Below, piece by piece: positions 13,322-64,000 of a stretch of DNA of 64,000 nt (position 1 is the first letter of the stretch; every line of letters starts with the position of its first letter). The notes under the pieces were generated by a model. That model was not told the DNA's origin and made no database searches. It saw nothing but the letters and a program-made list of their open reading frames with translations. Origin of the DNA: a virus; the IMG/VR virus record IMGVR_UViG_3300042507_005574; one strand, given 5' to 3'. The position numbers and the translations under genes were made by a program.

Positions 13322-13348
13322 TTCAGTATAAATAATATCGGGTATATT

Positions 13349-17591: not shown

Positions 17592-17795
17592 ATGCCAAAA
17601 CTTTATACAGATCTTCTCAAATCCCTTGAAGAGTGGGTTGCACACACCGCAAGGGTATCATCACGACTTAGCACCCGCACAGACCTCTCCATTAAGGCTA
17701 AGAAGCCGAGCGTGATACAACCGACACAAGTTCCCTTCTCCAAGAAAGAGAAGGCTCGTAGGGGCATACACGGCTTCCAGATAGGAGAAAAATAA
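17592..17795 (+). CDS. Small basic hypothetical protein
   Basis: CTAAATA at 17578-17584 directly upstream. The stop overlaps the next ATG (TAATG). Confidence 0.6.
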   Translation: MPKLYTDLLKSLEEWVAHTARVSSRLSTRTDLSIKAKKPSVIQPTQVPFSKKEKARRGIHGFQIGEK

Positions 17796-38456: not shown

Positions 38457-38481
38457 TATTTAGGTAGTTTTCGTCTAAATA
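38457..38481. promoter_or_regulatory. Divergent late promoters (CTAAATA on both strands)
   Basis: TATTTAG at 38457-38463 (minus strand, toward gp4) and CTAAATA at 38475-38481 (plus strand, toward gp48). Confidence 0.8.
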
Positions 38482-46961: not shown

Positions 46962-49148
46962 ATGTACGAAGATAAGTCTAAACAAATTTCTAATCTTGTA
47001 GCGGGAAGACTTCCTGAATTTGTTAGGGTCGATCATCCAACATTAGTTGCATTTCTTGAAACATATTATGAGTGGTTGCAAAAAAAAGAACGGGGCAAGC
47101 AAATTGTTAGCCCGATGCTTTTACAGGATATAATTGATGTAGATAAAAGTTTGGATGATTTTATCAGTCAATTCAAGAAAGAATATTTGTTCGATTTTCC
47201 CGAGCAGTTGGCTGTATCTAAAGAAACTGGAAATCCAGTTGATATCAGAAAACTAATTAAAAACATTAAATCATTTTATAGAGCAAAAGGTACAGAAAAG
47301 TCATACGAATTTTTGTTTAGAATTTTGTATGACACAGCAGTTGAATTTTATTATCCAAAGACCGATATTCTTCGGGTTTCTGATGGTAAGTGGTTACAGA
47401 AAACATCTATTAAAGTAACCAATACATTGAATGATCGTATATTTGAATCTATTGGTAGGATCATCTATCAGAAAAACGAATTAGGTCAGATAGTATCATC
47501 GGGGAAAGTCATTGATGTTTCGCTTTATCGTGAGGGGCAGAATGATGTCGCTGAATTAATAATTTCAGGCCGCAACGGCTCATTTACTCCTGGAAGCAAG
47601 GGTATAGATTTTAAAACTGAAAATGGAGAAACACTACATGAACTTAGAGTTTATGATGTGGTTGCATCTGTAACTATTTCGAACGGTGGATCTAACTACT
47701 CAGTTGGAGACAAAGTCTTTTTTACTTCTGCCGCAGGAGACAGCGGCGTTGGCGCACGGGGTTCTGTCTCACTTGTCGATGCCACAGGAAAAATTAGACG
47801 AATCAAAATTGAAAATTTTGGTATCAATTATCTCATCTCTCCAACAGTAAATGTGCAGTCTATTAGTGGTACGGGATTCGTTGGGGTTGCAAATACAGGA
47901 GCAATTTGTGAATATGAAGGGTACTACATAAATACTGATGGAAGAGTTAGTACCAATAAAGTCTTACAAGACAATCATTATTATCAAGATTATTCGTATG
48001 TTTTAAAAGCAGAAATTGTTATTGACGAATATCGTGAGTCAATCAGAAGACTTGTTCACCCTGCTGGTATGGCAATGTTTGGACAGGTTCTTATCAAACG
48101 CTGCGCCCGTGAAGATCTAGATCAATCATCCGCTTTAATTAAATTTGAAGTTCCTGTGATTGGTCACTACACACCGTACACATTCAATACATTTGACAAC
48201 TTACCTGACTGGTTTTCTATTCCAGGAACAGGAGCATCATCGGGATATAATGTTCATGTTGGATACAATCCCGCCAAACACGACTCTTTAATACAAGCAA
48301 TTGGTCTTTCGCCCGTTCCAAGACAAATCGGAAACCCAATAGCAAATATCATACCATTTGTTGAGGCTACAGGACCATCTTTTACTCCACTTGGTCTTAC
48401 CGGTTACAAAACTGCCGATCCATTCTGGATCATTTATGAACATCCAAATAGGAAGATAAGCGACATAGTCATTGCACAAGTTTGGAAAAATCAAATAGAT
48501 GATTTCACACAATGGCCTGAGTGGACCACTATAACGGGTGGCTCTCCTCCTGTAGGTTGGACTGCGGATTTTTATGGTGCATCGGGAACCTCTGCTGTTA
48601 ACAAGAAATATGCTCTACTGAAATATAACGAATTATCTGCTTTTAGAAAAATAACTGCAAGAGCATTTTTTAATATGCCGATTGGTAATGAATTTGATTG
48701 CAGAACAGAGGATAGGATTAGATATGCGAAACCGATTGTTTCGTTGATATATCCACTAAACACACAAAGAGTTTTTACTCCTGGCAGATGTGAATTTAAT
48801 GCTGGAATTTTGATTAGTAACTATGAAAATTTACCTAGATTTGGTGTTACTTCAGCAAGTAAAATAAGATTCACACTTTCAGGGTCAAAGAATGAAGTTA
48901 AAGTTATCAACATAAATGATAGAAACTGTTTGTTCCAGAATTTGACAGATGGTCCTTATTCATTGAAGGTTGAAGTTACCGATAGTAATGGGAAGGGAAT
49001 ACAAGGAATATCAGATACGGTGGTATTTGAGTTTTATTGTAGTGAACCAGTTTCACTTGGCGGTAGTGGCGGATCTGAGGATGCGGAAATTGACAGAATT
49101 ATTTCTAGTATATCTGGACAAGCACAAGATCCGCTCGGGTTCATTTAA
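46962..49148 (+). CDS. Baseplate wedge initiator (gp7-like)
   Basis: LPEFVR, FLETYYEWL, IKNIKSFYRAKGTEKSYEFLFRILY, LQDNHYYQDYSYV, VHPAGMAMFG. Lies between gp6 and gp8. Confidence 0.8.
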   Translation: MYEDKSKQISNLVAGRLPEFVRVDHPTLVAFLETYYEWLQKKERGKQIVSPMLLQDIIDVDKSLDDFISQFKKEYLFDFPEQLAVSKETGNPVDIRKLIKNIKSFYRAKGTEKSYEFLFRILYDTAVEFYYPKTDILRVSDGKWLQKTSIKVTNTLNDRIFESIGRIIYQKNELGQIVSSGKVIDVSLYREGQNDVAELIISGRNGSFTPGSKGIDFKTENGETLHELRVYDVVASVTISNGGSNYSVGDKVFFTSAAGDSGVGARGSVSLVDATGKIRRIKIENFGINYLISPTVNVQSISGTGFVGVANTGAICEYEGYYINTDGRVSTNKVLQDNHYYQDYSYVLKAEIVIDEYRESIRRLVHPAGMAMFGQVLIKRCAREDLDQSSALIKFEVPVIGHYTPYTFNTFDNLPDWFSIPGTGASSGYNVHVGYNPAKHDSLIQAIGLSPVPRQIGNPIANIIPFVEATGPSFTPLGLTGYKTADPFWIIYEHPNRKISDIVIAQVWKNQIDDFTQWPEWTTITGGSPPVGWTADFYGASGTSAVNKKYALLKYNELSAFRKITARAFFNMPIGNEFDCRTEDRIRYAKPIVSLIYPLNTQRVFTPGRCEFNAGILISNYENLPRFGVTSASKIRFTLSGSKNEVKVININDRNCLFQNLTDGPYSLKVEVTDSNGKGIQGISDTVVFEFYCSEPVSLGGSGGSEDAEIDRIISSISGQAQDPLGFI

Positions 49149-50070: not shown

Positions 50071-52407
50071 ATGCCAAGTTGCGACCCATTTCGTCAAAAC
50101 CACAGACGCTTCATAGCAGATACTATATTGGATGAATATAGTGATTTATCCGATGAGAATTTTTTTCTCTGTATTGGAAAGGTAACCCCTTGGGGAATAA
50201 CAGGATCTGATTTTCCCCCACAGTCAGTAGATTCCGTTCAAGATGAGACAAACTTTTGGCGGAATCTTATAGCAGCAAAAAGAATAAACAAATCTGATTG
50301 TTCTATGCTTGTTAGACGAATAGATTGGAATCCAGGAGAGATATATCAACCATATAGAAATGACATAGATTTATTTGATGATGTTGAGCCTGCTAGGTTT
50401 TATGTCTTGGTAGACGAAGAGAGGGTTTATGTTTGTGTAGATAATAATCTTGGAAATCCCTCTACAGTTCCTCCAACTCACACGGACACGATTGTTCGTA
50501 AGTTGTCCGATGGGTATAGATGGAAGTTTCTCTATCAAGTACCTGAAAGCAAAAGAAAGTTTTTGACAAAATCTCGGACTGGAGCATTAGGTTATATTCC
50601 AGTTGAATTTGTAGAATTTCTTCGTGTAAATGATGATAGATTTTTGCAATGGGAAGTTCAAAATTCAGCAGTTGATGGCAAGATTGAATTTGCTTATATG
50701 GATGAAGCAGCAAAAGCATATTGGGTTAGTACATTATCATGCATACTTCCATCCAGTGCAAATTTAGTAACCTTGAACGCTGCTCCCGGTGCAACTACAG
50801 TTTATATTGCTGCTCCTGAGTTAACTCCTAATTCCGCTCTTTATAATGATATGATTATTTCATTTGACGGTGGACCCGGACAGGGACAGAGAAGACAGAT
50901 TAAAGATTATACATGGCAGGGAACTTCCGCAAAAATTTTTATAGATCCTTTAGTTTTAGGTTTATCCGGTACATCCGATCCCAACAAACAATCATATTTT
51001 AGCATTCAACCGAGAATTACAGTCAGAGGTGATGGTAAAGCATATGAAAACATCAATAACCCTGACATAAAAACTGCCGATTTTCAAATCAAATTTGGGG
51101 AGACTGCAAACACAGACTTGGAATGTAGTGTTGTGTCACCAAGATATATTAAAAGTATTGAGATTGTAGATGGTGGAAAGAACTACACATTTGCCGAACT
51201 TGATATCCCTAAAGGATTAACTACATTAGTTTCTAACACACCATTTGAATATACAGATCTGAAAAAAGTTTTACACGCAGTTATACCGCCCCCCGGAGGT
51301 CATGGTGCTAATCCTCTCCGTGAACTTGGTGCAGCATCATTCATGATTGTTAAAAATTATGAAAGAGATGAAGACGGCAAAGTAGATACTGACAATGATT
51401 TTAGACAATTTGGTATTCTAAGAAATCCCATTTTGAGTGAGAAGCAAGTCAGAATTAAATTCAATCAGGCTGGCCTCAGCGGTTCGTTCACTGTTGGTGC
51501 AACTGCAATGCAGATGACTGGTGCGTATGGTGCGCCTTATGGTAAGGTAGTCGAGTGGTGTCCTGGATATTCAGGTGTAACGGCGACTAGTGAATTAGTT
51601 CTTACGAATATTCGTGGGGGCACATTTGCTGCGGGTGCTACAATGTCAGGACTTACCATTTTCGATGTTGTTACGAAAACTGTTGCTGGCTCTGAGGCGA
51701 GGCACTTATTAAATCTAACTCTGACACCTGAAAATGTAGAATTTTTATCTGTCGGTGGTGACTATAAGAGAAAGCATTTTGCACATGGGGTTGGAGATAG
51801 AAGGGTAAATATTCCACAGTCGAGAGCCTCCGGTGAAATTTGCAGTTGGCTTGCGTCTGGAGGAACACTTCTATATGGAACCTTGAAACTGGAAAATCCC
51901 AAAGGGAAATTCTACATCGGTGAAACAGTTCTTCAGACAGAACCATATTTCTCGGGATCTAATGGATCTACGGGCCAAGGTAAAATTTATGCAATTGACA
52001 CAGAAGTTTGCTGTTCACCCGCAACATACGATTTAACCACTTCTTTAACACTTTATGGTGAGGGTTTCGAAAACGATACTTTCTATAAAGATTCTTTTGT
52101 CTCTTTCCTGACAGGATCAACAGAGGGTAATGGATATATTGTTGATTGGAATCCCGTTACCGGAGGAACAAGTGGTGTTCTTCGTCTTGCAGGGGTTCAG
52201 GGTGATATAGTTAAAGGTCAATTAATCGATTACACCACTTTAGGGGCATCAGGAACTACCGTTACCATAAGTGGGTCAGTTCTTTCGGTGGATCACTCGG
52301 GAGAACTTAAATATAGGTCTGGAGAAGTGCTATACATACAGAATATCAAACCTATACAAAGGGATTTGGAGCAGAGGGAAGAAATCAAACTTGTCATCGA
52401 TTTCTAA
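50071..52407 (+). CDS. gp8: Baseplate wedge subunit
   Basis: IGKVTPW, RRIDW, VYVCVDN, STVPPT, DGYRWKFLY, PPGGHGANP, NDFRQFGILRNP, SGEVLYIQN..PI.R..EQREEIKLVIDF. CTAAATA at 50055. Confidence 0.9.
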   Translation: MPSCDPFRQNHRRFIADTILDEYSDLSDENFFLCIGKVTPWGITGSDFPPQSVDSVQDETNFWRNLIAAKRINKSDCSMLVRRIDWNPGEIYQPYRNDIDLFDDVEPARFYVLVDEERVYVCVDNNLGNPSTVPPTHTDTIVRKLSDGYRWKFLYQVPESKRKFLTKSRTGALGYIPVEFVEFLRVNDDRFLQWEVQNSAVDGKIEFAYMDEAAKAYWVSTLSCILPSSANLVTLNAAPGATTVYIAAPELTPNSALYNDMIISFDGGPGQGQRRQIKDYTWQGTSAKIFIDPLVLGLSGTSDPNKQSYFSIQPRITVRGDGKAYENINNPDIKTADFQIKFGETANTDLECSVVSPRYIKSIEIVDGGKNYTFAELDIPKGLTTLVSNTPFEYTDLKKVLHAVIPPPGGHGANPLRELGAASFMIVKNYERDEDGKVDTDNDFRQFGILRNPILSEKQVRIKFNQAGLSGSFTVGATAMQMTGAYGAPYGKVVEWCPGYSGVTATSELVLTNIRGGTFAAGATMSGLTIFDVVTKTVAGSEARHLLNLTLTPENVEFLSVGGDYKRKHFAHGVGDRRVNIPQSRASGEICSWLASGGTLLYGTLKLENPKGKFYIGETVLQTEPYFSGSNGSTGQGKIYAIDTEVCCSPATYDLTTSLTLYGEGFENDTFYKDSFVSFLTGSTEGNGYIVDWNPVTGGTSGVLRLAGVQGDIVKGQLIDYTTLGASGTTVTISGSVLSVDHSGELKYRSGEVLYIQNIKPIQRDLEQREEIKLVIDF

Positions 52408-52422
52408 TAAGTAAGGTAAAAA

Positions 52423-55400
52423 ATGCCATCATATATTCCAGAACTATTCAATACTGACCCTTATTACGATGATTTTAGCGAGAGCAAAAAGTTTCTTCGT
52501 ATTATGTTTAGACCAGGATTTGGTGTTCAAGGTCGTGAACTAACCCAACTTCAAACAATCTTACAGAATCAGATTGAAAGATTCGGTAATCATGTCTTCG
52601 AAGAAGGGAGCATGGTTTTAGATGGTAAGATAACAGTTAATAGTTTGAGATTTGCCCGTGTTTCGGGGCTGTCGGGAACAAATGATGTTTCTGATTTTCT
52701 CGGTACGATAATTTCTGCTGGAGGCAAGGCTAAGGCTAAAATTGTTCATACTGAGAATGGGTACACGGCATCATCGATTGACAATATTCCAGTAGTATTT
52801 TTTGAATACTTAGAAGGCGGAACCGCTTTTGCTTGGGGCGATTACATTGGCGGAACGGCAGGAAATGGAACATATGTTGTCGCTAGCATTACAGGAGCAA
52901 CATCAGGAGTTGTTCCTCCAACCGGAACGGCATTAGTTGTTTCTGTAGATAGCGGAGTTCGCTTCACAGAAGGATTTTTTGTACTGAATGATGCACAGTC
53001 TATCGGTGCTTATTCGCTTTCTGGTTCTGCTGGGTCTCAAGTTAGAATGTACGGATCGCCTACGACAAGAGTCGGTTTAAATGTCGTAAAGGGATTTGTT
53101 CAAGCGGAAGAAGATACATCGCTAAATGACCCCGCATTTGGATCTTACAATTACAACGCACCAGGCGCAGATAGATTCAAAATTGATCTCAATATAGTTC
53201 AATATGGATTTACTGCGGCAAATACAAGTGCAACTGACAACTTCTCACGAAAAGACTTCATAGAATTTTTACGATTAGTTAATGGGAGTCCAATTAAGAT
53301 AGAGAAGTATCCTGATTACGCTGTTCTAGAGGATACATTAGCAAGAAGAACATATGACGAGTCTGGAAACTATACAGTTCGTCCATTTGAACTGAACATG
53401 GTAGATGGACCTGGCATCAGCGGTGATGGTGCTACCGCAAATCTTTTTGCAGATTTAGAACCAGGAAAAGCATATATTTTTGGATATGAGTTTGAAACTC
53501 AAGGAATAACAAGACTTCCTATCAATACAGCCAGAGATGCTGCACATGTCAGAACAATAACTGACAAATATTTCAATAGATCTTTAGGTCCATATTGCAG
53601 AGTTCAATTTACAAATATTGCAAGTTCTTTGACTGGAATTGCATTTGATGACGAGCAACTTGTCTATCTTGGTAGAGGCATTTCAGGTGCTGCAAGAGAT
53701 CAGATAGGCACAGCAAGATTGCGTTGGATAGAACCTTATAGTGTTGCCAATAGTGTCTATAATTTACATCTTTTCAATGTTGAAATGTCTGGAACCGCAT
53801 CGTTTGACGATGTGACTAGAATTCATCACGCATCTTCGGGGACAGCACATGCATTTTCAGTTACTGGAAATGATGGTTTAATCAACCTACAGAATAGTAA
53901 TCTTCTGTTTGAATATCCAACGGGAACAAGAGGTAAAACAGTAACTGATGCTAATTATTCAATCGCAGGCTTCTTTGAAGTGACACTAGGGGCAGGAAAC
54001 TTCCCCTCCGTCGGATCAAATGGTTCAAGAGGTGTTGTCAACATCACTGATTACACTGCAAGTGCGACTGATGTTGCATTCTCTGTTCCACAAGACTATA
54101 CGGTTTTGCCAGATGAAGATGTCATGGCATTCACTAGAAGTGGATTGCCAATTGGTGGGACTGCCTACAGAAGAAATGACCAAGAACTTGATCTGACTTT
54201 AACGGGACCAGGAGTTATATCTGGAGAAAAGGTGTATATCGTAACATCAATCGATGTCCGTGCGCTTGATTACCCTGATCTTCGTAGAAATAAGACTGTC
54301 GTAACCGAAAATATTGGATTTACTGCTGCTGGCGGATTTACTGGAATATTTTCTGGATTAACAACAGATCAATACAATAACAGTGTTCTGTATCTTGCAG
54401 GAAAAGTGGATGTTTTTGATATCATATCTGTTACAGGAGTCAAAGACACAACAACACAACTAAAGCAATACTTCACATTTGACAATGGACAAAGAGATAA
54501 TTTGTATGATTGGTCTAGACTGAGTTTATTGGCGGGAGTCACTGGAGTTACAGGTCCATTCCAAGCAACGATAAAGAGATATGAGAGATCTGGAAATCGT
54601 GGACCATTCATAGTTGATTCCTATCCTTCTCCATACTCTGATATTCCAAAATATTCTAGTAGAACAACTGGAAAGATATATGATCTAGCAGATGTGATCG
54701 ACTTTAGACCTGATCGTGGTTCAAGTGGTAATGTCGTTGGTTATCCTTGGTTCCCAATCAATACTGCTGCAAACGATCAACTTTTCTCGTATCAACACTA
54801 TCTTCCAAGAACAGACAAAATTGTTTTGAATAGAGATAGAACATTCTCAGTAATTAGTGGAGTTCCGAGTCTTGATGCTCAATCTCCACCTGATGATCCG
54901 AATGCAATGACACTCTACTCAGTTACGGTGAATCCATATACATTCGATAAGAAAGATGTGTCTATTAGATTCGTGGAAAATAAGCGTTACACGATGCGTG
55001 ATATCGGTGAACTGGAAAAGAGAATAGAAGCAGTAGAATACTATACAACATTGACGCTTCTTGAACAAGAGGCAAAATCCATATCGATTGTCGATGACAG
55101 CAATATTGAAATTCCTAAGAAGGGTATTTTAGTCGATCAATTCAAGGGACACAATATTGGTGATGTCACCAACTCAATGTATGCTGCATCTGTAGATTTT
55201 GAGAAGAATGAACTTCGTCCTCCATTTGTTTCTCGGGTTTTTGCGCTCACGGGGCCATCAGAAATCTCAGGACTGACAACTTCGGGTGACGGAATCGTGA
55301 CTTTGAACTATACGACACAGGCAGAAATAGTTCAGCCTCTCACTACAAGAACATATACAATTAACCCATCAAATGTTTTCAATTACCTTGGCTCTCTGAT

Positions 55401-57372
55401 GCTGTCTCCTTCTTGTGATTTCTGGTTTGACACAGGAATTACTCCATCAGTAAAGGTCAATGTTGATGGTGAAAATGATGCTTGGCAATCAGGCGATGGT
55501 TTCGGTACACAATGGAACGATTGGGAATCAATTTGGTATGGTCGTGAAGTTGCTAATGAGGTCAATACAAAACAAAATATTGTTGACACGAAGAATTCAG
55601 TGGTTGCAGGAACTAAAGGTCTCAGTTTAGGAAACACATTTAAGTCTGGTGTTCCCGAAGGGATAAAGAGAAAGTCTATCTCTAAAGTCATCCGAAAAGA
55701 TGTCGTTCCTTATATGCGAGACAAAACAATAACAATGAATGCGTATGGCCTAAAGCCAAATACTAAATTCTATGTGTTTGTTGATGATGTTGATATCACA
55801 GCATATTGCACAGGTGGTTCACAAATCACAAGTGAAAAGGGTGAGATCAGTAATCTGAAATATATTATGAGTCAGGATGTGGAAAATGAGTTCTTAACTG
55901 GCCGTAGAGTTTTCAGAATCACCGACAGTAGTACTAATACTGTCTCTGAGACAACTATGGCCGCTGACGCTATTTTCAATTCATCGGGAAGTATTGATAC
56001 TTTACCCGAAGATGAGATACTCTCAACTCGCTCTGCTATTGTTCGTCGTAGATCGACAAAGTCGAATAAAATTCAGTCTAACTTGACAGAGTTATTATCT
56101 ACAGATTTCTTCGGTTATACCGAGCCAATGAGCCAGACTTTCTTTGTGGATCCTGTTAAGTATCCCGATGGTGTGTTTGTGAAAACCGTTGGCGTTGCAT
56201 TTGCAGGAAAAGATAGTGATCCAAATTCTGCGATTACTCTTATGATAAAGCCAACCCAAAGTGGATATCCACACCCCTCAAAGGTGATGCCATTTGGACA
56301 AAGGACTCTGTATTCTTCAAGTATTACAACAACGGAAGACGGATCTACAGAAACAACATTCGATTTCTCAAGTCCAGTTTATCTTCTTCCGGGTAGAGAG
56401 TATGCAATTGCTATTGCAACGAATAGTAGTGATTATATTGTTTTCGGTGCGTCTATCGGTAGTGATCTAATTCGTCTTAGTGAAGGTGACCCAATACAAA
56501 AGGCAACTAAACAACCCGCAATACGCAGCATATTCTTGCCGCAAAATACAGGCAGTCTTTCGAAGAAAGAAACAGATTCCTTAAAATTCTCAGTATATCT
56601 TTGCAAATTCTCGCCGCAGTCTGGATATGTGAAATACGAAAATAATCATGAATCTTATGGATCTGACACTAAGTTCGATCTCATGAGAATCAATATGAAC
56701 TATATTTCACCATCAAACACTTCGACCACATTTAGTGAAAGAGGGTTGTTAGGTGACATTGGCGGTTCTTTCATCGCTGCTCAAGCAAATAAAAATTTGA
56801 ATCGTCCAACTACAAGATCAACGAGAAACATGGGGACAGGTAAATTCTCAGAAGTTAGAGCAAATATGATCGGAAATGCTTATGTTTCTCCTTCTCTTGA
56901 TGTGGAAACATCGCACTATCTTGTAGTTGAAAATAAAGTAAATAATAACTTCGTTGTCGCTACCAATCGTGAATTGTTCCCTAATAATCTGGGCGCAACA
57001 GCACCTAGCGAAGCAAGATACATCACTAAACAAGTAACTCTTGAGCCAGGATTTGAGGCAACAAATGTTCATGTTCAGATGTCTCTCTGTAATCCATACG
57101 ATTCATCTATTCAGGTGTTTGTGAGACCACTTCCTGTTGGGGAAGGTGATTTTAGTAGTATTGGTTACACTCAATTGAATACTACTGACTCAGGATATTC
57201 ACAAAATTCTGATGAGTTCAGAGAAGTGCTTTATACGAGTGACGGATTGGGACTCTCTAAATTTAGGGCGTTCGCCATAAAGATTGTAATGTATTCGTCA
57301 TGCACATCGACTTTACCAAGCGATCCGAGATCTCTACCAAGAATTAGAAATCTAAGATTGGTGGCTACATGA
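52423..57372 (+). CDS. Large virion structural protein (VrlC/DUF4815-like)
   Basis: PYYDDF...RIMFRPG..VQ.RELTQLQTILQNQ, APGADR, LARRTYDESGNY.V, KRYTMRDIG.LE.RI, SQTFFVD, RYITK.VTL. Confidence 0.88.
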   Translation: MPSYIPELFNTDPYYDDFSESKKFLRIMFRPGFGVQGRELTQLQTILQNQIERFGNHVFEEGSMVLDGKITVNSLRFARVSGLSGTNDVSDFLGTIISAGGKAKAKIVHTENGYTASSIDNIPVVFFEYLEGGTAFAWGDYIGGTAGNGTYVVASITGATSGVVPPTGTALVVSVDSGVRFTEGFFVLNDAQSIGAYSLSGSAGSQVRMYGSPTTRVGLNVVKGFVQAEEDTSLNDPAFGSYNYNAPGADRFKIDLNIVQYGFTAANTSATDNFSRKDFIEFLRLVNGSPIKIEKYPDYAVLEDTLARRTYDESGNYTVRPFELNMVDGPGISGDGATANLFADLEPGKAYIFGYEFETQGITRLPINTARDAAHVRTITDKYFNRSLGPYCRVQFTNIASSLTGIAFDDEQLVYLGRGISGAARDQIGTARLRWIEPYSVANSVYNLHLFNVEMSGTASFDDVTRIHHASSGTAHAFSVTGNDGLINLQNSNLLFEYPTGTRGKTVTDANYSIAGFFEVTLGAGNFPSVGSNGSRGVVNITDYTASATDVAFSVPQDYTVLPDEDVMAFTRSGLPIGGTAYRRNDQELDLTLTGPGVISGEKVYIVTSIDVRALDYPDLRRNKTVVTENIGFTAAGGFTGIFSGLTTDQYNNSVLYLAGKVDVFDIISVTGVKDTTTQLKQYFTFDNGQRDNLYDWSRLSLLAGVTGVTGPFQATIKRYERSGNRGPFIVDSYPSPYSDIPKYSSRTTGKIYDLADVIDFRPDRGSSGNVVGYPWFPINTAANDQLFSYQHYLPRTDKIVLNRDRTFSVISGVPSLDAQSPPDDPNAMTLYSVTVNPYTFDKKDVSIRFVENKRYTMRDIGELEKRIEAVEYYTTLTLLEQEAKSISIVDDSNIEIPKKGILVDQFKGHNIGDVTNSMYAASVDFEKNELRPPFVSRVFALTGPSEISGLTTSGDGIVTLNYTTQAEIVQPLTTRTYTINPSNVFNYLGSLMLSPSCDFWFDTGITPSVKVNVDGENDAWQSGDGFGTQWNDWESIWYGREVANEVNTKQNIVDTKNSVVAGTKGLSLGNTFKSGVPEGIKRKSISKVIRKDVVPYMRDKTITMNAYGLKPNTKFYVFVDDVDITAYCTGGSQITSEKGEISNLKYIMSQDVENEFLTGRRVFRITDSSTNTVSETTMAADAIFNSSGSIDTLPEDEILSTRSAIVRRRSTKSNKIQSNLTELLSTDFFGYTEPMSQTFFVDPVKYPDGVFVKTVGVAFAGKDSDPNSAITLMIKPTQSGYPHPSKVMPFGQRTLYSSSITTTEDGSTETTFDFSSPVYLLPGREYAIAIATNSSDYIVFGASIGSDLIRLSEGDPIQKATKQPAIRSIFLPQNTGSLSKKETDSLKFSVYLCKFSPQSGYVKYENNHESYGSDTKFDLMRINMNYISPSNTSTTFSERGLLGDIGGSFIAAQANKNLNRPTTRSTRNMGTGKFSEVRANMIGNAYVSPSLDVETSHYLVVENKVNNNFVVATNRELFPNNLGATAPSEARYITKQVTLEPGFEATNVHVQMSLCNPYDSSIQVFVRPLPVGEGDFSSIGYTQLNTTDSGYSQNSDEFREVLYTSDGLGLSKFRAFAIKIVMYSSCTSTLPSDPRSLPRIRNLRLVAT

Positions 57373-57566
57373 AAGTACCCGTTAAAAATAACAAAATGGT
57401 TCGGGATACAAAAACCAATGCCATTCTCTCAGTCGATATTGATGCCATTAAGGCATACGAAGAGAAGAGAAGAAAGATTCAGACCGAAAGAGATAGACTA
57501 AATAGGCTAGAACTAGAGGTATTGGAACTTCGTTCCATCATAGATCAATTAAGGAATAAGCCATAA
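57369..57566 (+). CDS. Small coiled-coil protein that typically follows the VrlC-like gene
   Basis: MVRDTKTNAILS followed by a C-terminal heptad repeat. Overlaps both neighbours. Confidence 0.75.
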   Translation: MKVPVKNNKMVRDTKTNAILSVDIDAIKAYEEKRRKIQTERDRLNRLELEVLELRSIIDQLRNKP

Positions 57567-60500
57567 TGTCCTGCACATGTACCGGCAACTGCGACCTAAT
57601 TAATATTTCAAATTTAGTCCTATCGGACACATTTCATACATGGTACGATAGAACAAATGAGATAATTGATGCTATAAATCCACTACAAATCTATGATGTT
57701 AATGTTGGGCAAACTGATGGTGGTTTGACTTTAAATTCAACTTGCGTGAATGGTGACACAAACGGTGTCATTACTTTGAAAGTATGGCCTGGACCCGGAA
57801 TTGGTGTCGGTACAACATTAACTCCAAATTACTATCTAAACCACACGATGATAGATGTGTCAAACATGTTGACACTCGGCGTGACGGGTTTCTCAGATGC
57901 GATTGTAGCAAATAGATCACTAACATCATTCCCGAACATAAACGACTGGTTTATAGTCAGTGATACTCTTGATAATAGACTTGGTTCGGGTGCAGGAACT
58001 CCTAAGAGAATTAGCGCACAGCACATTCTGCCCCCAACTGTCTATTTGCCTCCTGGATTTCAATTCAATGGTAATGTCAGTATAAATGGAAATTTGAGTG
58101 TTCAAGGTACTGCATCAAATGTCGATTCAAATGATCTTCGTATAGAAGATAAAGTAATTGAACTTGCATACCATAGAATCGTTGCTATCGATGTCACTGG
58201 TCCAACATATGGGGGATTCCCCGCACAAGGTGCTACCTTCTATTATTATGATCCTGGAGTGACTAATCCAACTGATTACACCACTAGTGGTCAAGTTAGT
58301 GAAGTAAATTTCTATCCATCGTTTACAACACTAAAATTACATAACTTTGTTTTTGGTGGAGTAAATGATATTGTATCGGGAGGCAGTATCAGCATCACGG
58401 GAACTGTTCTTGATTTCTCAATGATTGCTGGACCAACTACTACTGAAAATTTCTATGGTGATATTGAGTTGGATGAAGCGGGGATAAGAGTTCGTGGTTC
58501 GGATAGTGATAAACACTTCATATGGGTTTATGAGCAAGGACCATATCAAGAAGTAGTGAATACATTCATGGCAGACACCAATCTTGGTGTCAGCGGCACA
58601 GATTTACACATTTATTCTTCAAGATTTAAGGCATTTGGTTACTACGACCCAGATGTTGCGGCTTACAAAGATGATTATAATGATAAGTTCCATTTCATCG
58701 GCCATGAAGGAGCAAATACTTCAATAAGACTCGGTGGATTGGGTACAGGAGGATCTTTAGATGCTCCGTATGGATATTGGGGTATTACAAGATATAACTA
58801 CGGTTCTACGGGTTCACAGCAGCCTCTTGTATTCTCTTTCAAACAGAGTTTAAATCACGGGGAACAAGACAAATTCACGATTTGGTCGGGAGCATCGGGT
58901 CCACAATATCCTTACATCACAGGACCAACGGGACAAAGTGATAATGCAATAGACCATTTTGCACAAAGACTGAATGTCGATTTCTTAGATGGTGCACACG
59001 GCACTACGATGCCAACGCCATTCAGCATTCCTGTTGCAAGAGCAAGTGGAACGATTGATCCAGGCTGGATTGACTTCGATAATTCATCAATCGGTAAGTG
59101 TTACTCTGTAACTGCTCATAGTTTTGTAATTGGTGATGTTGTAAGACTTGATCCGGATAATTTAACAATAACTGGTGCGATTGCAACGAGTCCTGAAAAT
59201 GCAGAAGTATTGGGTATCGTTAGTAGAGTTGTGAATGCTAATAATTTCTGTGTTACGACTAAAGGATACATATCAGGTCTTACTGGTACTGCATCTTCAA
59301 GAATCGCATCGATTCTTCCATTGGCACCCGGAAATGCATACTTTTTGAGTGCAGACAATGTTCGTGGAATGATTGCTGATCCTGATGGTGGGGCAAGTCA
59401 ACTCCAACTTGGTGAAATTCGTAAGCCACTTATAGTTGCACTCGGTCCAGATAGTGCCTATGTTCACAATTATCTTGGTGCTGTATTTGGTGGAATTCCA
59501 AGTGGAGGCGGTGCAGGCGCAACAGGAACGCTGAGTGATGTTGTTGATATTCAAGGTCTGATGCCGGTAGGGATCATACAGCCTTTTAGTGGAGAAATTG
59601 AATATATTCCATCAGGGTGGTTGCTATGTGATGGTAGAAGACTCGAAAAATCATTGTGGACAGAACTGCATACCGCTATTGGGCAGAAGTTCTATGCTGA
59701 TGGGACATTGAATAGTTCTTATAACCCTAATGTTGGGGGTAATGTTCCGATAGATATTGCAGGATGGAATCGTGGACTTTTAGTGAATGATGCAGTTACT
59801 GTCGAGGCAACTGTAGGTGGAGTCCTGAGAGAATCGGACACATTTGTTACATCTGTAAATGGAACAACTGTAAGTTTTGACGAAAACACATTTGCATATG
59901 AAACTTTCAATGGAGCAACTTCGTTTAGAATTAGAGGTAGACTAAAGACTCCATCTGAAAGTTATACAAGCGTTTTCTTTATTCCCGACTTACGCCGTAG
60001 AATTCTTGTTGGTGCAACTAAAGGTCTGACAGGTTCCCTTACACCGAGTATTTCTGTCGGTGATATTGGTGGAACGAATCAAGTTACTCTGTCTGCTGCA
60101 AATATTCCACCGCATGAGCATAGACTAACATCTGCATCTATCAATACTGGTTTAGACGCTGAAATCGGAGTTGGTTTTGGTCAACCAACTTCGGACAGTA
60201 CTGTTGATACTTACTTTACTGCCCGTGGCCCTCTAGGGGTAAGTACAGCACAGCCATTCGATAACATGCAAGAGTATGTTACTGTTCATTGGATTATTCG
60301 TGCACAGAAGGGTCTTAGTGCAATTATCCTTACAGGACATAATCATGATGATCGTTATGTTCGCTACGATAGTTCACAGACAGTCACATCCTCACAAAGA
60401 AATACATTTAGATCAAATGCACATGTTTTGAGTGATGGATCTGACGGTGGGGCAACATTCGCAAATAGACTCACCATAACAGGTGGTGCCGTCATAGGTG

Positions 60501-61666
60501 ACAATGGTTCTTCACTATTGATTGTTCGATCAGGAGCCTCATTTGGCGGCGGTGCGACATTTAATGATGTCAGTATAGTGAAATATCCGTTCTCATCGGG
60601 TGGGTTGACTCACAAGGGAGTCATCAGTTCTGACAATATCAGTAACTATACAAGATGGTCTATTCGTGGAAATCCATATTCTGAAGCATCAAATGGATAT
60701 GGTGATCTTCTAGTTGAAAGTGGTTGGTCTGGTTCTTCTTGGAACACACTTTCAACTGTTATTGCACCTATGAGTCAGGCTGCGATTAAAGTTCGTGGCG
60801 GAACCATTGGTACTTCTTCCATTGCAATTTTCAATGACAACGCTCTTGGTGCAACTAATGATGCTTGCTCTCTTTTAATGTATGGGAAGGGAACTGCATC
60901 TGACGATGTAAATGAGGTAAAGTTCTCCTCTGGAATTAGAGGCAGAATTGATCGTGCAGAAACTTCAAGTACGATTACTAGGAAATTTAGTATTGTTCTT
61001 GGTGGTGGATCTTCGCCAAATGCCGCAGAAGATGTTTTCACTTTCACAAGAAAGGATAGTACACCTGCAACTGTTGACATTAACATTCCTAAGGGACTTG
61101 CTACTATAACTAGCCCGTCATCTTATGTTGTTCTTGATTCAAATAACAATTTGAAGAAAGTTACCACAGTAGTAAGTGCACCAAATATACCAGGAGCCTC
61201 TAATACGCTGACAGGTGCTGCATCATTTGACAGTAGACATTTCCAAATCGGTTCTACGGGACATGTGGTCAGTAAGATTACGGTTAATGGGCAAATTCCT
61301 GATAGTGATGGAAATATTACTATTGATATACCAACACCAACAACATCATTTGGTGTTAAGGCACACGGTTCATATCAATTAAATGGGAGTACTATTAGTA
61401 CGATAGTATCGGGGAATCTTTCATTCAGTATACCTACTGGTGGTCAAATTGGAAGAGTGCGATGTACATTCACCACGCCTATGACTAATACTAATTACAC
61501 TGTAGTTGTAACTCCTCTCCGTCCGGCTAATTGGGGATCTTCACAAATTGTTAATTCAGCCATGGGAGTTTGGCAAGGATCTAAGACAATAACTCATTTT
61601 GATTTGATTGCAGATTCAACTTTTAGTCCAGGACCAAATTCATCCGAAGTGGTGGTTATAGGATAA
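57566..61666 (+). CDS. Tail fibre protein with a phage tail-collar domain
   Basis: N-terminal LSDTFHTWYDRTNEII; collar PVGIIQPFSG...PSGWLLCDG...ELHTAIG; FFIPDLRRR; NIPPHEH; C-terminal FTTPMTNTNYTVVVT. Confidence 0.82.
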   Translation: MSCTCTGNCDLINISNLVLSDTFHTWYDRTNEIIDAINPLQIYDVNVGQTDGGLTLNSTCVNGDTNGVITLKVWPGPGIGVGTTLTPNYYLNHTMIDVSNMLTLGVTGFSDAIVANRSLTSFPNINDWFIVSDTLDNRLGSGAGTPKRISAQHILPPTVYLPPGFQFNGNVSINGNLSVQGTASNVDSNDLRIEDKVIELAYHRIVAIDVTGPTYGGFPAQGATFYYYDPGVTNPTDYTTSGQVSEVNFYPSFTTLKLHNFVFGGVNDIVSGGSISITGTVLDFSMIAGPTTTENFYGDIELDEAGIRVRGSDSDKHFIWVYEQGPYQEVVNTFMADTNLGVSGTDLHIYSSRFKAFGYYDPDVAAYKDDYNDKFHFIGHEGANTSIRLGGLGTGGSLDAPYGYWGITRYNYGSTGSQQPLVFSFKQSLNHGEQDKFTIWSGASGPQYPYITGPTGQSDNAIDHFAQRLNVDFLDGAHGTTMPTPFSIPVARASGTIDPGWIDFDNSSIGKCYSVTAHSFVIGDVVRLDPDNLTITGAIATSPENAEVLGIVSRVVNANNFCVTTKGYISGLTGTASSRIASILPLAPGNAYFLSADNVRGMIADPDGGASQLQLGEIRKPLIVALGPDSAYVHNYLGAVFGGIPSGGGAGATGTLSDVVDIQGLMPVGIIQPFSGEIEYIPSGWLLCDGRRLEKSLWTELHTAIGQKFYADGTLNSSYNPNVGGNVPIDIAGWNRGLLVNDAVTVEATVGGVLRESDTFVTSVNGTTVSFDENTFAYETFNGATSFRIRGRLKTPSESYTSVFFIPDLRRRILVGATKGLTGSLTPSISVGDIGGTNQVTLSAANIPPHEHRLTSASINTGLDAEIGVGFGQPTSDSTVDTYFTARGPLGVSTAQPFDNMQEYVTVHWIIRAQKGLSAIILTGHNHDDRYVRYDSSQTVTSSQRNTFRSNAHVLSDGSDGGATFANRLTITGGAVIGDNGSSLLIVRSGASFGGGATFNDVSIVKYPFSSGGLTHKGVISSDNISNYTRWSIRGNPYSEASNGYGDLLVESGWSGSSWNTLSTVIAPMSQAAIKVRGGTIGTSSIAIFNDNALGATNDACSLLMYGKGTASDDVNEVKFSSGIRGRIDRAETSSTITRKFSIVLGGGSSPNAAEDVFTFTRKDSTPATVDINIPKGLATITSPSSYVVLDSNNNLKKVTTVVSAPNIPGASNTLTGAASFDSRHFQIGSTGHVVSKITVNGQIPDSDGNITIDIPTPTTSFGVKAHGSYQLNGSTISTIVSGNLSFSIPTGGQIGRVRCTFTTPMTNTNYTVVVTPLRPANWGSSQIVNSAMGVWQGSKTITHFDLIADSTFSPGPNSSEVVVIG

Positions 61667-61669
61667 GTT

Positions 61670-62011
61670 ATGGCAATATCGATCAACAGAGACATGGATC
61701 AAGGATCAGACTTTTCTTTCTCTTATATTGTAAGAGGAAGTGACGGGTCTCCCACGGACATTTCAATAGGTTATACAGCATATTCACAGATGCGTAGATT
61801 TTACTCGTCAACAACGGGAGTCAATTTAACCACATCAATAACAGGATCTACGGGCAATATTATAGTTTCTATGTCAGCAACAAATACTGCAAACATAAAG
61901 GCAGGAGTTTGGTTTTATGATGTGGAATTACATTCGAATGGCAGTGAAAATGTCCAAAGAGTAGTTCAAGGAATGATAACTGTTTATCCAGAAATTACGA
62001 AAATTTCTTGA
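61670..62011 (+). CDS. Conserved small Ig-like virion/baseplate accessory protein
   Basis: NRDMDQGSDFS, YTAYSQMRR, AGVWFYDVEL, RVVQGMITVYPEIT. Confidence 0.7.
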   Translation: MAISINRDMDQGSDFSFSYIVRGSDGSPTDISIGYTAYSQMRRFYSSTTGVNLTTSITGSTGNIIVSMSATNTANIKAGVWFYDVELHSNGSENVQRVVQGMITVYPEITKIS

Positions 62012-62079
62012 ACATCTTATATCATCTCATAATCGATTGCTAAATAGTTCAGACTCAACAGTTCATAATGGAGATTAAA

Positions 62080-63276
62080 ATGGCTGAAACAGCGATTCTT
62101 GAGCCTACGATTCAAAACACGCAAACTAAGACGAATAAGAGCGGAATTCCTACGGTCAACCTTTGCATGATTGTAAAGGACGAGGCACATGTCATCGAAA
62201 GATGTCTTGCTTCCGTTCTTCCTGTGATCGATTATTGGGTTATTGTTGATACAGGTTCAACTGACGGAACGCAGCAAAGAATTAAGGATTTCTTTGATCG
62301 AAATGGCATCCCCGGTGAACTACACCAAAGCACTTGGACAGATTTCGGAACGAATAGAAGCGAGGCTCTAGAGTACGCCCAAAAGACAGGGCACGACTAT
62401 AGCCTCATGATTGATGCAGACGAGATTCTTGTTTTCGATCCTGGCTTTGATCCACAGACTTTCAAGAAGGGTCTAACTGCTGATCTCTACAATGTGTTTG
62501 CAATGTTTGGACAGACTAAGTACCATCGTCCACAATTGACAAGCAATCACAAGAAATTCTACTACCGTGGAATTCTTCATGAGTATGTTGATTGCCATGA
62601 TCAGATCTCAACTAGAGATTTTGCCCGTGGATTTATCAATACTCCAATTCAAGATGGTAATAGATCTAAATCTGCTGATAAGTATGAGAAAGATGCAAGA
62701 GTATTTGAGGCAGCACTTGAATCAGGTAAGGTCGATGAGAAGGATCTAAACCGATATCATTTCTATCTTGCTCAGTCATACCGTGATTCGCAGCAGTGGG
62801 AAAAGTCACTTTCTGCATACTTGAAGAGAGCAGAACTTGGTGGTTGGAATGAAGAAGTTTTCTACTCGTACTATCAGGCGGGTAGAATCATGGAAATTCT
62901 CAACAAGTCATTCGATGAAATCGTCAAGACATATTTCCAAGCCTACCAGGCTGCCCCTTGGAGAGCAGAGAGCCTATGGGCTGCTGCTAGACTCTGTCGG
63001 ACATACTGCCGCTGGGATCAGGCTTATCGCTTCGCCAAGCAGGCATTAAAGATTCGATATCCTGAAGGTGCTTTGTTTGTTGGTCAAGGTATCTACGAGT
63101 GGGCAATCCTTGATGAATTTGCTATTTCATCATATTGGACTGAGCATTATCGTGAATCTCGTCTAGCATCAATGCAACTTTTAAATGATGGTAAGTTCCC
63201 GCAAGACCAGAAAGAAAGAATTGAAGCAAACCTCAAGTTCGCCACGGAGGCTCTGTTAACAGAGCCAAATGGGTGA
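62080..63276 (+). CDS. GT2-family glycosyltransferase with C-terminal TPR-like repeats
   Basis: LCMIVKDEAHVIERCL, IVDTGSTDGT, DFGTNRS, DxD motif MIDADE, GILHE; TPR-like FYLAQSYRD...YLKRAE and APWRAES. SD GGAG favours 62080. CTAAATA at 62040. Confidence 0.9.
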   Translation: MAETAILEPTIQNTQTKTNKSGIPTVNLCMIVKDEAHVIERCLASVLPVIDYWVIVDTGSTDGTQQRIKDFFDRNGIPGELHQSTWTDFGTNRSEALEYAQKTGHDYSLMIDADEILVFDPGFDPQTFKKGLTADLYNVFAMFGQTKYHRPQLTSNHKKFYYRGILHEYVDCHDQISTRDFARGFINTPIQDGNRSKSADKYEKDARVFEAALESGKVDEKDLNRYHFYLAQSYRDSQQWEKSLSAYLKRAELGGWNEEVFYSYYQAGRIMEILNKSFDEIVKTYFQAYQAAPWRAESLWAAARLCRTYCRWDQAYRFAKQALKIRYPEGALFVGQGIYEWAILDEFAISSYWTEHYRESRLASMQLLNDGKFPQDQKERIEANLKFATEALLTEPNG

Positions 63277-63334: not shown

Positions 63335-64000
63335 ATGGCATTTAGCGCACTACCAATTCAAGGGGGCGGATCCAGTGACGGACGCTCCATCAGAAACACT
63401 ATCACGCAAGTCGGCCACTCCTTTCAGCCAGGAATGGTTGTCAGGCGTGATAGTGCTACTGGTTTATATGTTGTTGCCAGAGCAAATACTATAGCAAACT
63501 CAAACTCATGCGGTATAGTTGAGTCTGTTACTGCAAACACATTTGTTCTTGTTTACCAGGGAGAAATGGATTTTGGTTCTGCTACAATATCAATTGATGA
63601 CGGTTCGACTAGTTTAACAAATGGTTTTGTGTACTATCTTTCACCTGGTAGTGGTACACAGGGCTATCTGACACCTACTGCACCTACTGATCAGTCAGCA
63701 ATTTATCATCCTCTTTTTGTAGCAACTGCAAATAAAAACGGATTAGTAATTAATGCATTACCTAGACCAGGTGGTGGCGGTGGAGAAGGATCTTCTCTTT
63801 TCACACCTGTCGGCTCTATAATTTCTTGGGGCGGCAAGGCAAATGAAGTTCCTCAAAATTGGATGTTGTGTGCTGGTGATGCACTAGGCAAGAGCGAATA
63901 TTCTACGCTTTATAGCAAGATAGGCGATTCATATAAGATAATTGGTTTGGAAAATGCAATTTCAACTGGAGTAACGGCTAATGATAGACTCAGTTTGAAG
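63335..64000 (+). CDS. 3'-truncated tail fibre protein with a tail-collar domain (not in the ORF track)
   Basis: MAFSALPIQGGGSSDG...HSFQPGMVVRRD...PVGSIISWGG...PQNWMLCAG, open to the window end. CTAAATA at 63304 and an AAGGA SD. Confidence 0.8.
   Translation, partial: MAFSALPIQGGGSSDGRSIRNTITQVGHSFQPGMVVRRDSATGLYVVARANTIANSNSCGIVESVTANTFVLVYQGEMDFGSATISIDDGSTSLTNGFVYYLSPGSGTQGYLTPTAPTDQSAIYHPLFVATANKNGLVINALPRPGGGGGEGSSLFTPVGSIISWGGKANEVPQNWMLCAGDALGKSEYSTLYSKIGDSYKIIGLENAISTGVTANDRLSLK

Follow-up and report, generated by a model that had tools for sequence, protein, structure and literature searches.

A glycosyltransferase gene set among the fibre genes of the window, the whole 64,000-nucleotide stretch of viral DNA analysed here, is proposed to encode an SgtA-type O-glycosyltransferase that modifies the phage's own virion, with a collagen-like tract of the adjacent fibre as main substrate and motif sites dispersed over other outer proteins as probable acceptors. 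The probability of this proposal as a whole is put at about 0.55. The analysis establishes the fold and family of the enzyme, a conserved gene order around it, a motif excess restricted to one lineage, and the pairing of the enzyme family with collagen-like proteins. The enzyme, its surroundings and the sigma factor gene that gives the context for late transcription are located as follows:

61670-62011, + strand: LtfC-like fibre assembly chaperone (phrog_3304, 4.9e-18; Pfam LtfC, 0.004)
62040-62046, + strand: CTAAATA, a late-promoter-like motif 21 nt 5' of the glycosyltransferase ATG
62068-63276, + strand: soluble glycosyltransferase of 402 aa, GT-A (family 2) plus TPR, assigned by Pfam, family profile, AF2 and Foldseek
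63335-64000, + strand: fibre gene 3' of the glycosyltransferase, N-terminal 221 aa with a Collar domain, cut by the window end
24815-25402, - strand: gp55-like late sigma factor (phrog_234, 8e-53)

The enzyme matches the GT2 family of Pfam (PF00535) at 1.8e-8, and its TPR part, missed by Pfam at E <= 0.01, was revealed by a family profile and by the AlphaFold model (pLDDT 93.5), in which 10 helices occupy residues 205-397. Compared with the PDB, the profile retrieves GmaR at 5.5e-22, SunS at 4e-17 and ThuS at 7e-16, with matches to TPR proteins reaching 7e-20. Foldseek ranks SunS and ThuS first, over the full length and at E 8e-15, while wall-teichoic-acid glycosyltransferases attain only about 1e-6. 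The DxD motif is D116-A-D118; the two aspartates, H171 and E172 do not vary among 36 homologues, and the sequence contains no membrane or hydrophobic segment. Profile and fold matches thus agree in placing the enzyme within the protein- or peptide-directed GT2-TPR group, GmaR and SunS included, to which the original prediction had assigned it.

More specific identities were considered and rejected. Against the glycocin glycosyltransferase model (TIGR04195) the enzyme scores 28.6 bits with a cut-off of 350, and its gene is surrounded by genes for fibres, a chaperone and baseplate proteins; a glycocin precursor peptide, a transporter and a thiol-disulfide oxidoreductase are all missing from the neighbourhood. 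A flagellin glycosyltransferase and anti-repressor of the GmaR type does not suit a phage structural module devoid of flagellar genes, the likeness being confined to the catalytic and TPR domains. A T4-type DNA glucosyltransferase (GT-B) or a membrane-bound GtrB is at odds with a GT-A plus TPR model that has no hydrophobic segment. Phage DNA glucosyltransferases of the T4 type have other folds, GT-B in the case of the T4 alpha and beta enzymes, and the top Foldseek matches include no structures of these enzymes or of GtrB.

The gene order is fibre, LtfC-like chaperone, glycosyltransferase, fibre, and the glycosyltransferase is indeed placed like a late gene among fibre genes. A late promoter of its own, also claimed for it, is borne out in part: no classical T4 late promoter (TATAAATA) precedes the gene, and CTAAATA is present 21 nt before the ATG. 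This heptamer occurs 16 times in the window. Ten + strand copies precede a gene start by 12-70 nt, among these starts 8446, 11360, 14621, 30172, 38487, 50071, 57566, 62068 and 63335, with gp8 and fibre genes included, and one copy on the - strand precedes gp4; the motif would probably function as a promoter. The DNA comes from an uncultured T4-like water phage, and the isolate collection contains no member of this phage clade.

At least 80 IMG/VR contigs encode a homologue 65-93% identical to the enzyme and repeat the arrangement of fibre, LtfC-like gene, glycosyltransferase and fibre, the LtfC-like gene being conserved directly 5' of the enzyme. In 51 of 59 relatives the downstream fibre carries at about residues 425-495 a collagen-like GXY tract, mostly G-x-T. 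The window itself contains no collagen-like tract of at least 5 GXY triplets, and its downstream fibre is cut at residue 221, before the expected position; the best-supported substrate is therefore deduced from the relatives, the closest of which with this fibre covered has an enzyme 85% identical. The tract, seen in relatives and lying beyond the window end, is predicted to be the most secure substrate. Genes for sugar supply also occur in the relatives: one for a Gmd-like enzyme (1e-120), others for sugar-nucleotide enzymes, and two additional GT2 genes.

Outside this clade, the enzyme family adjoins collagen-like proteins closely and far above chance. Of 79 bacterial loci that contain a homologue, 29 also have an ORF with an extreme G.[ST]G excess that is a true (GPT/GAT/GST)n collagen-like protein, and 16 of these ORFs lie less than 1 kb from the enzyme gene, with only 5 at 3-10 kb. 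The bacteria comprise Streptomyces, Chlamydiae, Alphaproteobacteria, Bacillus, Clostridia, Chloroflexia and others, and the same pairing is present in 6 of 31 viral loci from other lineages. Two unrelated viruses encode both the enzyme and, at other places in the genome, G-x-T collagen ORFs; in unrelated viral genomes with the enzyme, no dispersed motif excess was observed outside the collagen ORFs. The phage enzyme is 26% identical over 298 aa (E 5e-16) to a Clostridial collagen-adjacent TPR-GT2, the Ligaoa enzyme, and a homologue search started from the latter gave no C. difficile protein among the 120 matches listed. These collagen neighbours, together with the activity of SgtA, provide independent support for a tie between the enzyme family and the G-x-T motif.

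SgtA of C. difficile (CD3350; 358 aa), composed of a GT-A domain and 4 TPR, adds beta-O-GlcNAc to Thr/Ser of G-x-T/S-G peptides, single-site ones included, the peptides assayed carrying P or A at x (PMC7157674). Both enzymes are soluble, have about 360-400 aa with GT-A followed by TPR, and would be expected to share DxD metal chemistry. The sgtA gene lies directly upstream of bclA3, which encodes an exosporium collagen-like glycoprotein, as the phage gene lies upstream of a fibre whose tract is seen in relatives, and the SgtA acceptor G-x-T/S-G is the motif enriched here. The phage gene differs in being a late gene whose partner is a tail fibre, with a Collar domain and a short collagen tract, rather than a spore surface protein; moreover, the motif is here also dispersed in non-collagen baseplate proteins, and x is mostly L, V, I or A. 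The proposed homology to SgtA rests on architecture, on a shared family of Clostridial collagen-adjacent TPR-GT2 enzymes and on the motif.

The best full-length structural matches are the glycocin S-/O-glycosyltransferases SunS and ThuS (PDB 7msn, 7msp, 7msk; E 8e-15 to 1e-12), aligned over about 400 columns at only 12-18% identity and with a TM-score of about 0.6 because the domain arrangement differs. They share GT-A plus TPR with the phage enzyme, and their acceptor is a polypeptide, modified in a loop flanked by Gly; unlike them, the phage enzyme has no glycocin precursor, transporter or disulfide-forming gene nearby. GmaR of L. monocytogenes (PDB 22ao, 7x9r), the best sequence match among solved structures through its catalytic domain, is a flagellin O-GlcNAc transferase and MogR anti-repressor (PMC9638930). 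Like the phage enzyme it includes a TPR domain, and its O-glycosylation is directed at Ser/Thr in the protein of a surface filament, but it is larger, its substrate is flagellin, and the phage enzyme gives no sign of a comparable regulatory role. We know of no G-x-T-G rule for the flagellin substrate of GmaR. In mycobacteriophages, phage-encoded glycosyltransferases are described as decorating the phage's own structural proteins (Freeman et al. 2023, PMC10527164, as cited in PMC12619734 and PMC12801897); according to these citing accounts, the phages are siphoviruses, other enzymes are involved and the sugars are on C-terminal tails of capsid and tail-tube subunits, whereas here the phage is a T4-like myovirus, its outer baseplate and fibres are the candidates, and the motif is short and defined.

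The motif G-x-[ST]-[GA] was counted in the structural proteins of the window, and expected counts were obtained from whole-protein shuffles, then from local shuffles of 40 aa and 15 aa. In the pooled set 123 sites were observed against 41.7 expected (z about 13, whole-protein shuffles), a relation that did not change under either local shuffle. Proteins contributing to this count, with observed and expected sites, include:

1285-5931, + strand: large fibre-like protein with internal repeats of about 89 aa, each with GLTG/GDSG/GASG; 34 against 11.4, the sites not being independent of each other because they lie in these repeats
6297-8432, + strand: second fibre-like protein with the same repeat; 15 against 4.3
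17795-21625, + strand: 1276-aa protein, family unassigned, presumed structural; 9 against 2.2
46962-49148, + strand: gp7-like baseplate wedge protein; 6 against 1.2
50071-52407, + strand: gp8-like baseplate wedge protein, 778 aa; 11 against 1.6
52423-57372, + strand: VrlC-like / DUF4815 baseplate protein; 15 against 3.6, with 14 of the 15 in the N-terminal 770 aa
57566-61666, + strand: fibre protein with Collar and Gp10_C domains; 11 against 5.7

The excess, about 3x over composition, is real and specific for direction and register. No control motif in the same set gave an excess (reversed motif 1.20x, G[ST].[GA] 1.19x, G..[ST][GA] 0.85x, G.[DN][GA] 0.62x), and the sub-motifs ranged from G.TG at 4.2x and G.SG at 2.9x to G.[ST]A at only 1.9x. 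Within the window the excess is confined to the gp7-like, gp8 and VrlC-like proteins and the fibres, and in a 93%-complete relative enrichment was found only in gp7, gp8, VrlC and fibres. The inner virion proteins (gp6, gp25, gp53, gp48, gp5, tube, tape measure) showed none, with 5 sites against 3.7 expected, so that the motif does not extend over the whole virion surface as had been proposed, being limited to outer baseplate and fibres.

The individual motifs quoted in the original prediction were all recovered: in gp8, GITG at residue 42, GLSG at 297 and 468, GATA at 476, GYSGVTA at 499-505, GSTG at 632, GGTSG at 698-702 and GASG at 725; in the VrlC-like protein, GLSG at 82, GFTA at 262 and 632, GISG at 331 and 419, GFTG at 638, GVTGVTG at 705-711 and GATA at 336 and 1524. 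The ORF at 17795 was also correctly named as a carrier. The dozens of sites attributed to the fibres were found in the ORF at 1285-5931 only and not in the other fibres. NrdJ, gp46/47, UvsW, RNase H and gp32 do have few sites, as had been noted, but their number is at expectation (4 observed, 2.6 expected); these replication-type proteins are low in Gly, which alone predicts a near-absence and makes it uninformative by itself. The excess itself stands after correction for composition, in the outer proteins only.

Comparison with other phages bears on the link between motif and enzyme in both directions. The observed-to-expected ratio is 3.8 in the window and 1.14 pooled over six isolates without the enzyme, whose homologous proteins are equally Gly/Ser/Thr-rich. 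The chief caveat, on the other hand, comes from a sister clade (L023/L065/L024, L026/L034/L037, L062), which has a 2.3-4.5x excess in gp7, gp8 and VrlC; no enzyme was detected at the syntenic place or elsewhere in its 50-95 kb records, which are only 28-53% complete. Since enzyme and excess share one phylogenetic origin, their co-occurrence counts as one event. In gp8 the sites per protein average 9.7 in the enzyme-bearing clade, 8.1 in the sister clade and 2.8 in the outgroup, and the conserved sites of the two enriched clades barely overlap (1/6 and 1/5), so that density persists and positions shift.

In the proposed mechanism, the product of 62068-63276 would be made late, along with the fibres, and would work in the cytoplasm as a soluble O-glycosyltransferase for proteins, of the same type as SgtA, SunS and GmaR, with GT-A as catalytic domain and the TPR domain binding the substrate. 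The DxD motif, with a divalent metal, would bind a nucleotide-sugar, for which analogy with SgtA and GmaR suggests UDP-HexNAc, and the enzyme would transfer the sugar to the Thr/Ser hydroxyl of extended or looped G-x-T/S-G segments. The prime substrate would be the collagen-like tract, made of G-x-T, that the next fibre gene downstream encodes. The gp7-like, gp8 and VrlC-like proteins and other fibres would probably offer further acceptors in their isolated G-x-[ST]-G sites, and glycans would thus coat the end of the particle that recognises the host. Glycosylation of a virion fibre protein at G-x-T/S-G by this enzyme is likely, and the phage probably sugar-coats its host-recognition parts. 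Use of the dispersed baseplate sites in gp8, the gp7-like and the VrlC-like protein is plausible, at less than even odds.

That the excess is an artefact of Gly/Ser/Thr-rich composition, internal repeats or a word in the DNA is scarcely credible. The structural proteins are rich in Gly and Ser/Thr, and 49 of the 123 sites fall in the two proteins with internal repeats; nonetheless, without these two the count is still 74 against about 26, the excess outlasts whole-protein and local shuffles with its direction and register, and the equally rich homologues of the six other phages lack it. The codons of the motif are varied and include both Ser codon families, which places the signal at the protein level and not at the DNA level. 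Shuffles, controls and codons thus give the artefact reading no support. The enzyme might alternatively act on something other than the virion (host LPS or surface glycan, a host or phage peptide, DNA), with the motif excess unrelated. The glycosyltransferases in the fibre region of SAR11 myophages (pelagimyophages) are taken as O-chain modifiers (PMC7029224), the sugar-nucleotide islands of the relatives are of a kind that also serves surface polysaccharides, and GT2 is a very broad family. Such a target is nevertheless improbable for a soluble GT-A plus TPR enzyme whose nearest solved structures are peptide- or protein-directed, far ahead of teichoic-acid and polysaccharide glycosyltransferases; the folds of T4-type DNA glucosyltransferases, the lack of glycocin genes nearby and the close association of the family with collagen-like proteins speak against it as well.

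The enzyme may also modify the collagen tract of the adjacent fibre only, as in the SgtA-BclA3 pair, the dispersed sites being sugar-free structural turns. The partners of the family, in bacteria and viruses alike, are collagen-like tracts and not dispersed sites, the sister clade retains the dispersed excess with no enzyme detected, and many gp8 sites lie in lineage-specific domains missing from HTVC008M, Melnitz and S-PM2. Two Gly around a small polar residue form a common tight turn, and in the gp8 model (pLDDT 84) all 11 motif Ser/Thr are in loops or at strand ends; surface acceptors had been anticipated there, but loops are also the expected seat of structural G-x-S/T-G turns, and this mapping therefore does not discriminate. 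A structural motif, however, should keep its positions, whereas the gp8 sites barely overlap at a density of 8-10 against 2.8 in the outgroup, and several unrelated folds share the excess, all of them in outer proteins. In addition, SgtA takes isolated single G-x-T/S-G sites (PMC7157674), and the motif often occurs in the window as an in-phase doublet, for example GVTGVTG or GYSGVTA. Restriction to the fibre tract is hence considered rather unlikely. It is conceivable, at somewhat less than even odds, that the dispersed sites are true acceptors gained and lost under selection for density, a single SgtA-like enzyme maintaining an evolving glycan coat over the fibres and the baseplate periphery through a three-residue sequon.

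To our knowledge, proof of virion glycosylation is limited to a few phages, the mycobacteriophages, and has not been connected with any short sequon. The present hypothesis names a defined motif, a single candidate enzyme and candidate substrates and is thereby directly testable, its new part being the dispersed motif on baseplate proteins, with turnover of sites. The link of the family to (G-x-T)n collagen across many bacterial phyla also allows substrates to be predicted for thousands of "TPR-containing GT2" genes that lack annotation. At present, fibre-region glycosyltransferases of phages are interpreted as enzymes that modify host LPS or act on DNA (PMC7029224, PMC10202952), and the proposal, if true, would bear on their annotation; were the dispersed sites true acceptors, the "LPS-modifying" enzymes of aquatic myophages would be recast as virion-modifying, and the coat would be to a bacterial virus what glycan shields are to animal viruses. 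Moreover, with the enzyme found in at least 80 contigs, a sugar coat on fibres and baseplates would, if the proposal holds, be widespread among the abundant, uncultured T4-like phages of aquatic habitats, with consequences for host recognition, protease resistance and resistance to non-specific adsorption.

The source of the window is an uncultured T4-like myovirus, whose genes include gp46/47, gp55, UvsW/Y, gp32 and NrdJ, and whose baseplate block runs in the order gp48, gp53, gp5, PAAR, gp25, gp6, gp7-like, gp8 and VrlC-like/DUF4815, followed by several fibre genes. Among isolates, Pelagibacter phage HTVC008M and the Methylophilales Melnitz phages come closest, with only ~35% identity in gp6; at the DNA level no isolated phage matched the window, and the clade has no cultured member. 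From gp8 onwards the genes are:

50071-52407, gp8
52423-57372, VrlC-like protein (DUF4815)
57566-61666, Collar/Gp10_C fibre
61670-62011, LtfC-like chaperone
62068-63276, plus strand, glycosyltransferase (GT2-TPR, 402 amino acids; hereafter the enzyme)
63335 to window end, start of a further fibre

The motif G-x-[ST]-[GA], which the original prediction had taken for an O-glycosylation sequon of the virion, was found in gp8 and the VrlC-like protein in every instance quoted there, and its abundance is confirmed. Structural proteins contain 123 matches; whole-protein shuffles give an expectation of 41.7 (z ~13), which local shuffles of 40 and 15 amino acids leave unchanged. Control motifs (reversed, two shifted, and with D/N, V/I/L, A/G or K/R/E in the third position) showed no excess (0.6-1.2x). 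The global and local shuffles and these controls rule out an artefact of composition. The codons of the motif are diverse, both Ser codon families included; therefore the signal lies in the protein and not in the DNA, and an underlying DNA-level word is ruled out. The excess amounts to 4.2x for G.TG, 2.9x for G.SG and 1.9x for G.[ST]A, with L, V, I and A preferred at the x residue and charged residues avoided. Enrichment (observed/expected) affects gp8 (11/1.6), the VrlC-like protein (15/3.6), the gp7-like protein (6/1.2), as well as the fibres and three ORFs, at 1285, 6297 and 17795, and is not seen in gp6, gp25, gp53, gp48, gp5, tube and tape measure pooled (5/3.7). The near-absence of the motif from replication proteins stands as a count (4/2.6), but these proteins are too poor in glycine for it to be informative. 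An internal repeat of ~89 amino acids accounts for many matches in two fibre-like proteins, and without these two the count is still 74 versus ~26.

The two large repeat proteins (1285-5931 and 6297-8432) are built in tandem from units of the form ...TGVASF(D/N)..HF.V...G.V.L...GVTSFNGLTGNVTLTGDG.... and gave only spurious low-complexity matches in Pfam and PHROGs. The repeat is also present in relatives (84-101 kb in the near-complete genome G012), and the family seems undescribed. Within the fibre-like gene run lie two translationally coupled genes, one for a Gly-rich protein (9831-10712; 25% Gly, Pfam Gly_rich_2 5e-12) and the other for a 190-aa methyltransferase (10709-11281; phrog_15480 5.9e-24, no Pfam match), possibly another enzyme that modifies fibre proteins; the Pfam scan of the small ORFs and the methyltransferase gave no informative match. 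In the VrlC-like protein (52423-57372), 14 of the 15 motif sites fall within the N-terminal 770 residues and none in the conserved DUF4815 core (787-1500), a distribution that suggests that only the N-terminal half would be exposed.

That the enzyme belongs to the protein-directed GT2-TPR class, as originally proposed, is borne out by several lines of evidence. Pfam recognizes the GT2 domain only; a profile of 36 homologues, compared with solved structures, matched GmaR over the entire catalytic domain (5.5e-22), SunS (4e-17) and ThuS (7e-16), and also TPR proteins at residues ~180-305. In the AlphaFold model (pLDDT 93.5) ten helices come after a GT-A domain, and Foldseek placed SunS and ThuS at the top over the full length (E 8e-15 to 1e-12), with teichoic-acid glycosyltransferases ranking lower (~1e-6). 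Residues D116-A-D118, H171 and E172 are invariant, and no membrane segment was found in the enzyme. The family is large, with 2955 clusters at E < 1e-30.

The gene neighbourhoods of this family point to its substrate. Eight family sequences were used to retrieve 80 bacterial loci with homologues, and all neighbouring ORFs were scored for G.[ST]G. An ORF with an extreme excess (up to 394 matches) was found in 29/79 loci, at less than 1 kb from the enzyme gene in 16, less than 3 kb in 24 and 3-10 kb in five. These neighbours are genuine collagen-like proteins made of GPT, GAT or GST triplets, many with a signal peptide and a globular C-terminus, and come from Streptomyces, Chlamydiae, Alphaproteobacteria, Flagellimonas, Bacillus, Ligaoa/Oscillibacter, Chloroflexia, Paraburkholderia and others. 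Environmental Chlamydiae are strikingly common among the collagen-bearing loci; at four loci (L163, L164, L197 and L200, from Alphaproteobacteria, Xanthobacter and Chlamydiae) the collagen-like proteins, of 660-1520 amino acids, consist almost entirely of G-A-T or G-P-T triplets, with up to 394 G.[ST]G matches. The pairing recurs in 6/31 viral loci of other lineages, and two unrelated viral genomes with the enzyme carry G-x-T collagen ORFs elsewhere. In Clostridioides difficile, SgtA (358 aa, GT-A at 1-260, four TPRs) is encoded directly upstream of bclA3, the gene of its collagen-like substrate, and transfers beta-O-GlcNAc onto Thr, also Ser, of collagen-like-region peptides, accepting single-site peptides around G-A-T-G, G-P-T-G or G-A-S-G (PMC7157674). 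This G-x-T/S-G acceptor is the motif enriched in the window proteins. The phage enzyme is 26% identical (E 5e-16) to a Clostridial collagen-adjacent TPR-GT2.

A comparable neighbour exists in the phages themselves. At least 80 IMG/VR contigs encode the enzyme at 65-93% identity and keep the gene order fibre, LtfC-like, glycosyltransferase, fibre. Among the 59 relatives with enough sequence and a fibre ORF starting <400 nt past the enzyme stop codon, 51 show, around residues 425-495 of this downstream fibre, a collagen-like tract, and most of these tracts are G-x-T-rich. The window contains no collagen-like tract of five or more triplets and its downstream fibre ends at residue 221, therefore it displays the dispersed form of the motif alone; judging from the relatives, the complete fibre of this phage would probably carry such a tract. 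The genome G012 (IMG/VR 3300042691_012617) also encodes, at 100954-103386, an 811-aa protein with an unbroken collagen-like tract of 66 triplets, which is Glu/Lys/Arg-rich (GERGEK type), with hardly any Thr at Y, unlike the G-x-T type.

Six isolates devoid of an enzyme homologue (HTVC008M, Melnitz, S-PM2, DLP_6, Cr30 and Syn9) gave 82/72 = 1.14 over their pooled homologous baseplate and fibre genes, compared with 79/20.8 = 3.8 in the window. Relatives known to have the enzyme are all 3-8x enriched in gp8, VrlC, gp7 and fibres, proteins that alone stand out among the ~75 large ORFs of a relative that is 93% complete. The gp8 tree has three groups: clade I, with the enzyme wherever assessable (the near-complete G011 included), its sister clade II and an outgroup. 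The motif excess is 2.3-4.5x in clade II and ~1x in the outgroup, and the enzyme was not found in clade II, at the syntenic place or anywhere, by protein, family-profile or Pfam GT2 searches of seven records that are only 11-53% complete, those of 50-95 kb being 28-53% complete; the same search detected it in near-complete relatives. A scan of the collection for longer clade II contigs found none longer than 66 kb. This excess without a detected enzyme is the chief objection to the link. Large contigs with a distant enzyme copy, sought as an independent T4-like lineage, had no gp8 homologue, and two of them, read throughout, had collagen ORFs and no dispersed excess.

The behaviour of the sites themselves favours function over shared history, since gp8 keeps their density while their positions move. 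Clade I has 9.7 sites per protein, against 8.1 for clade II and 2.8 for the outgroup; conserved positions coincide between clades I and II in just 1/6 and 1/5, and 11 of the 32 clade I sites are singletons, an effect that misalignment in variable regions could inflate. On the gp8 model (pLDDT 84) all 11 motif Ser/Thr lie in loops or strand ends, which is compatible with glycosylation but does not discriminate, as a structural turn would occupy the same places.

The late promoter attributed to the enzyme gene had to be revised. The canonical T4 sequence TATAAATA occurs once in the window, at 13327, far from the gene, whereas CTAAATA lies 21 nt upstream, a placement consistent with late expression. 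CTAAATA likewise precedes gp8, gp48 and four fibre genes. The copies at 8429, 11329, 14607, 30154, 38475, 50055, 57498, 62040 and 63304 (plus strand) and at 38457 (minus strand) stand 12-70 nt before many gene starts; most of these genes are structural, with NrdJ (11360) and a small regulator (30172) among the rest. CTAAATA is probably the late promoter of the lineage.

Near-complete relatives encode Gmd-like GDP-mannose dehydratases (E ~1e-120), several further SDR sugar-nucleotide enzymes and two additional, short GT2 genes, in islands distant from the fibre-region glycosyltransferase (3.8-4.7 and 115-124 kb in G012; 93 and 137 kb in G011); their products could supply donors and extend the glycan. 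To our knowledge, mycobacteriophages are the only phages for which virion glycosylation has been cited. Fibre-region glycosyltransferases of pelagimyophages and actinophages have been interpreted as LPS or DNA modifiers (PMC7029224, PMC10202952). The original interpretation is partly supported. The use of the dispersed baseplate sites as acceptors is a plausible but tentative prediction, whereas the enzyme is, with a probability of about 0.65, an SgtA-type protein O-glycosyltransferase that would modify G-x-T/S-G in a virion fibre protein.
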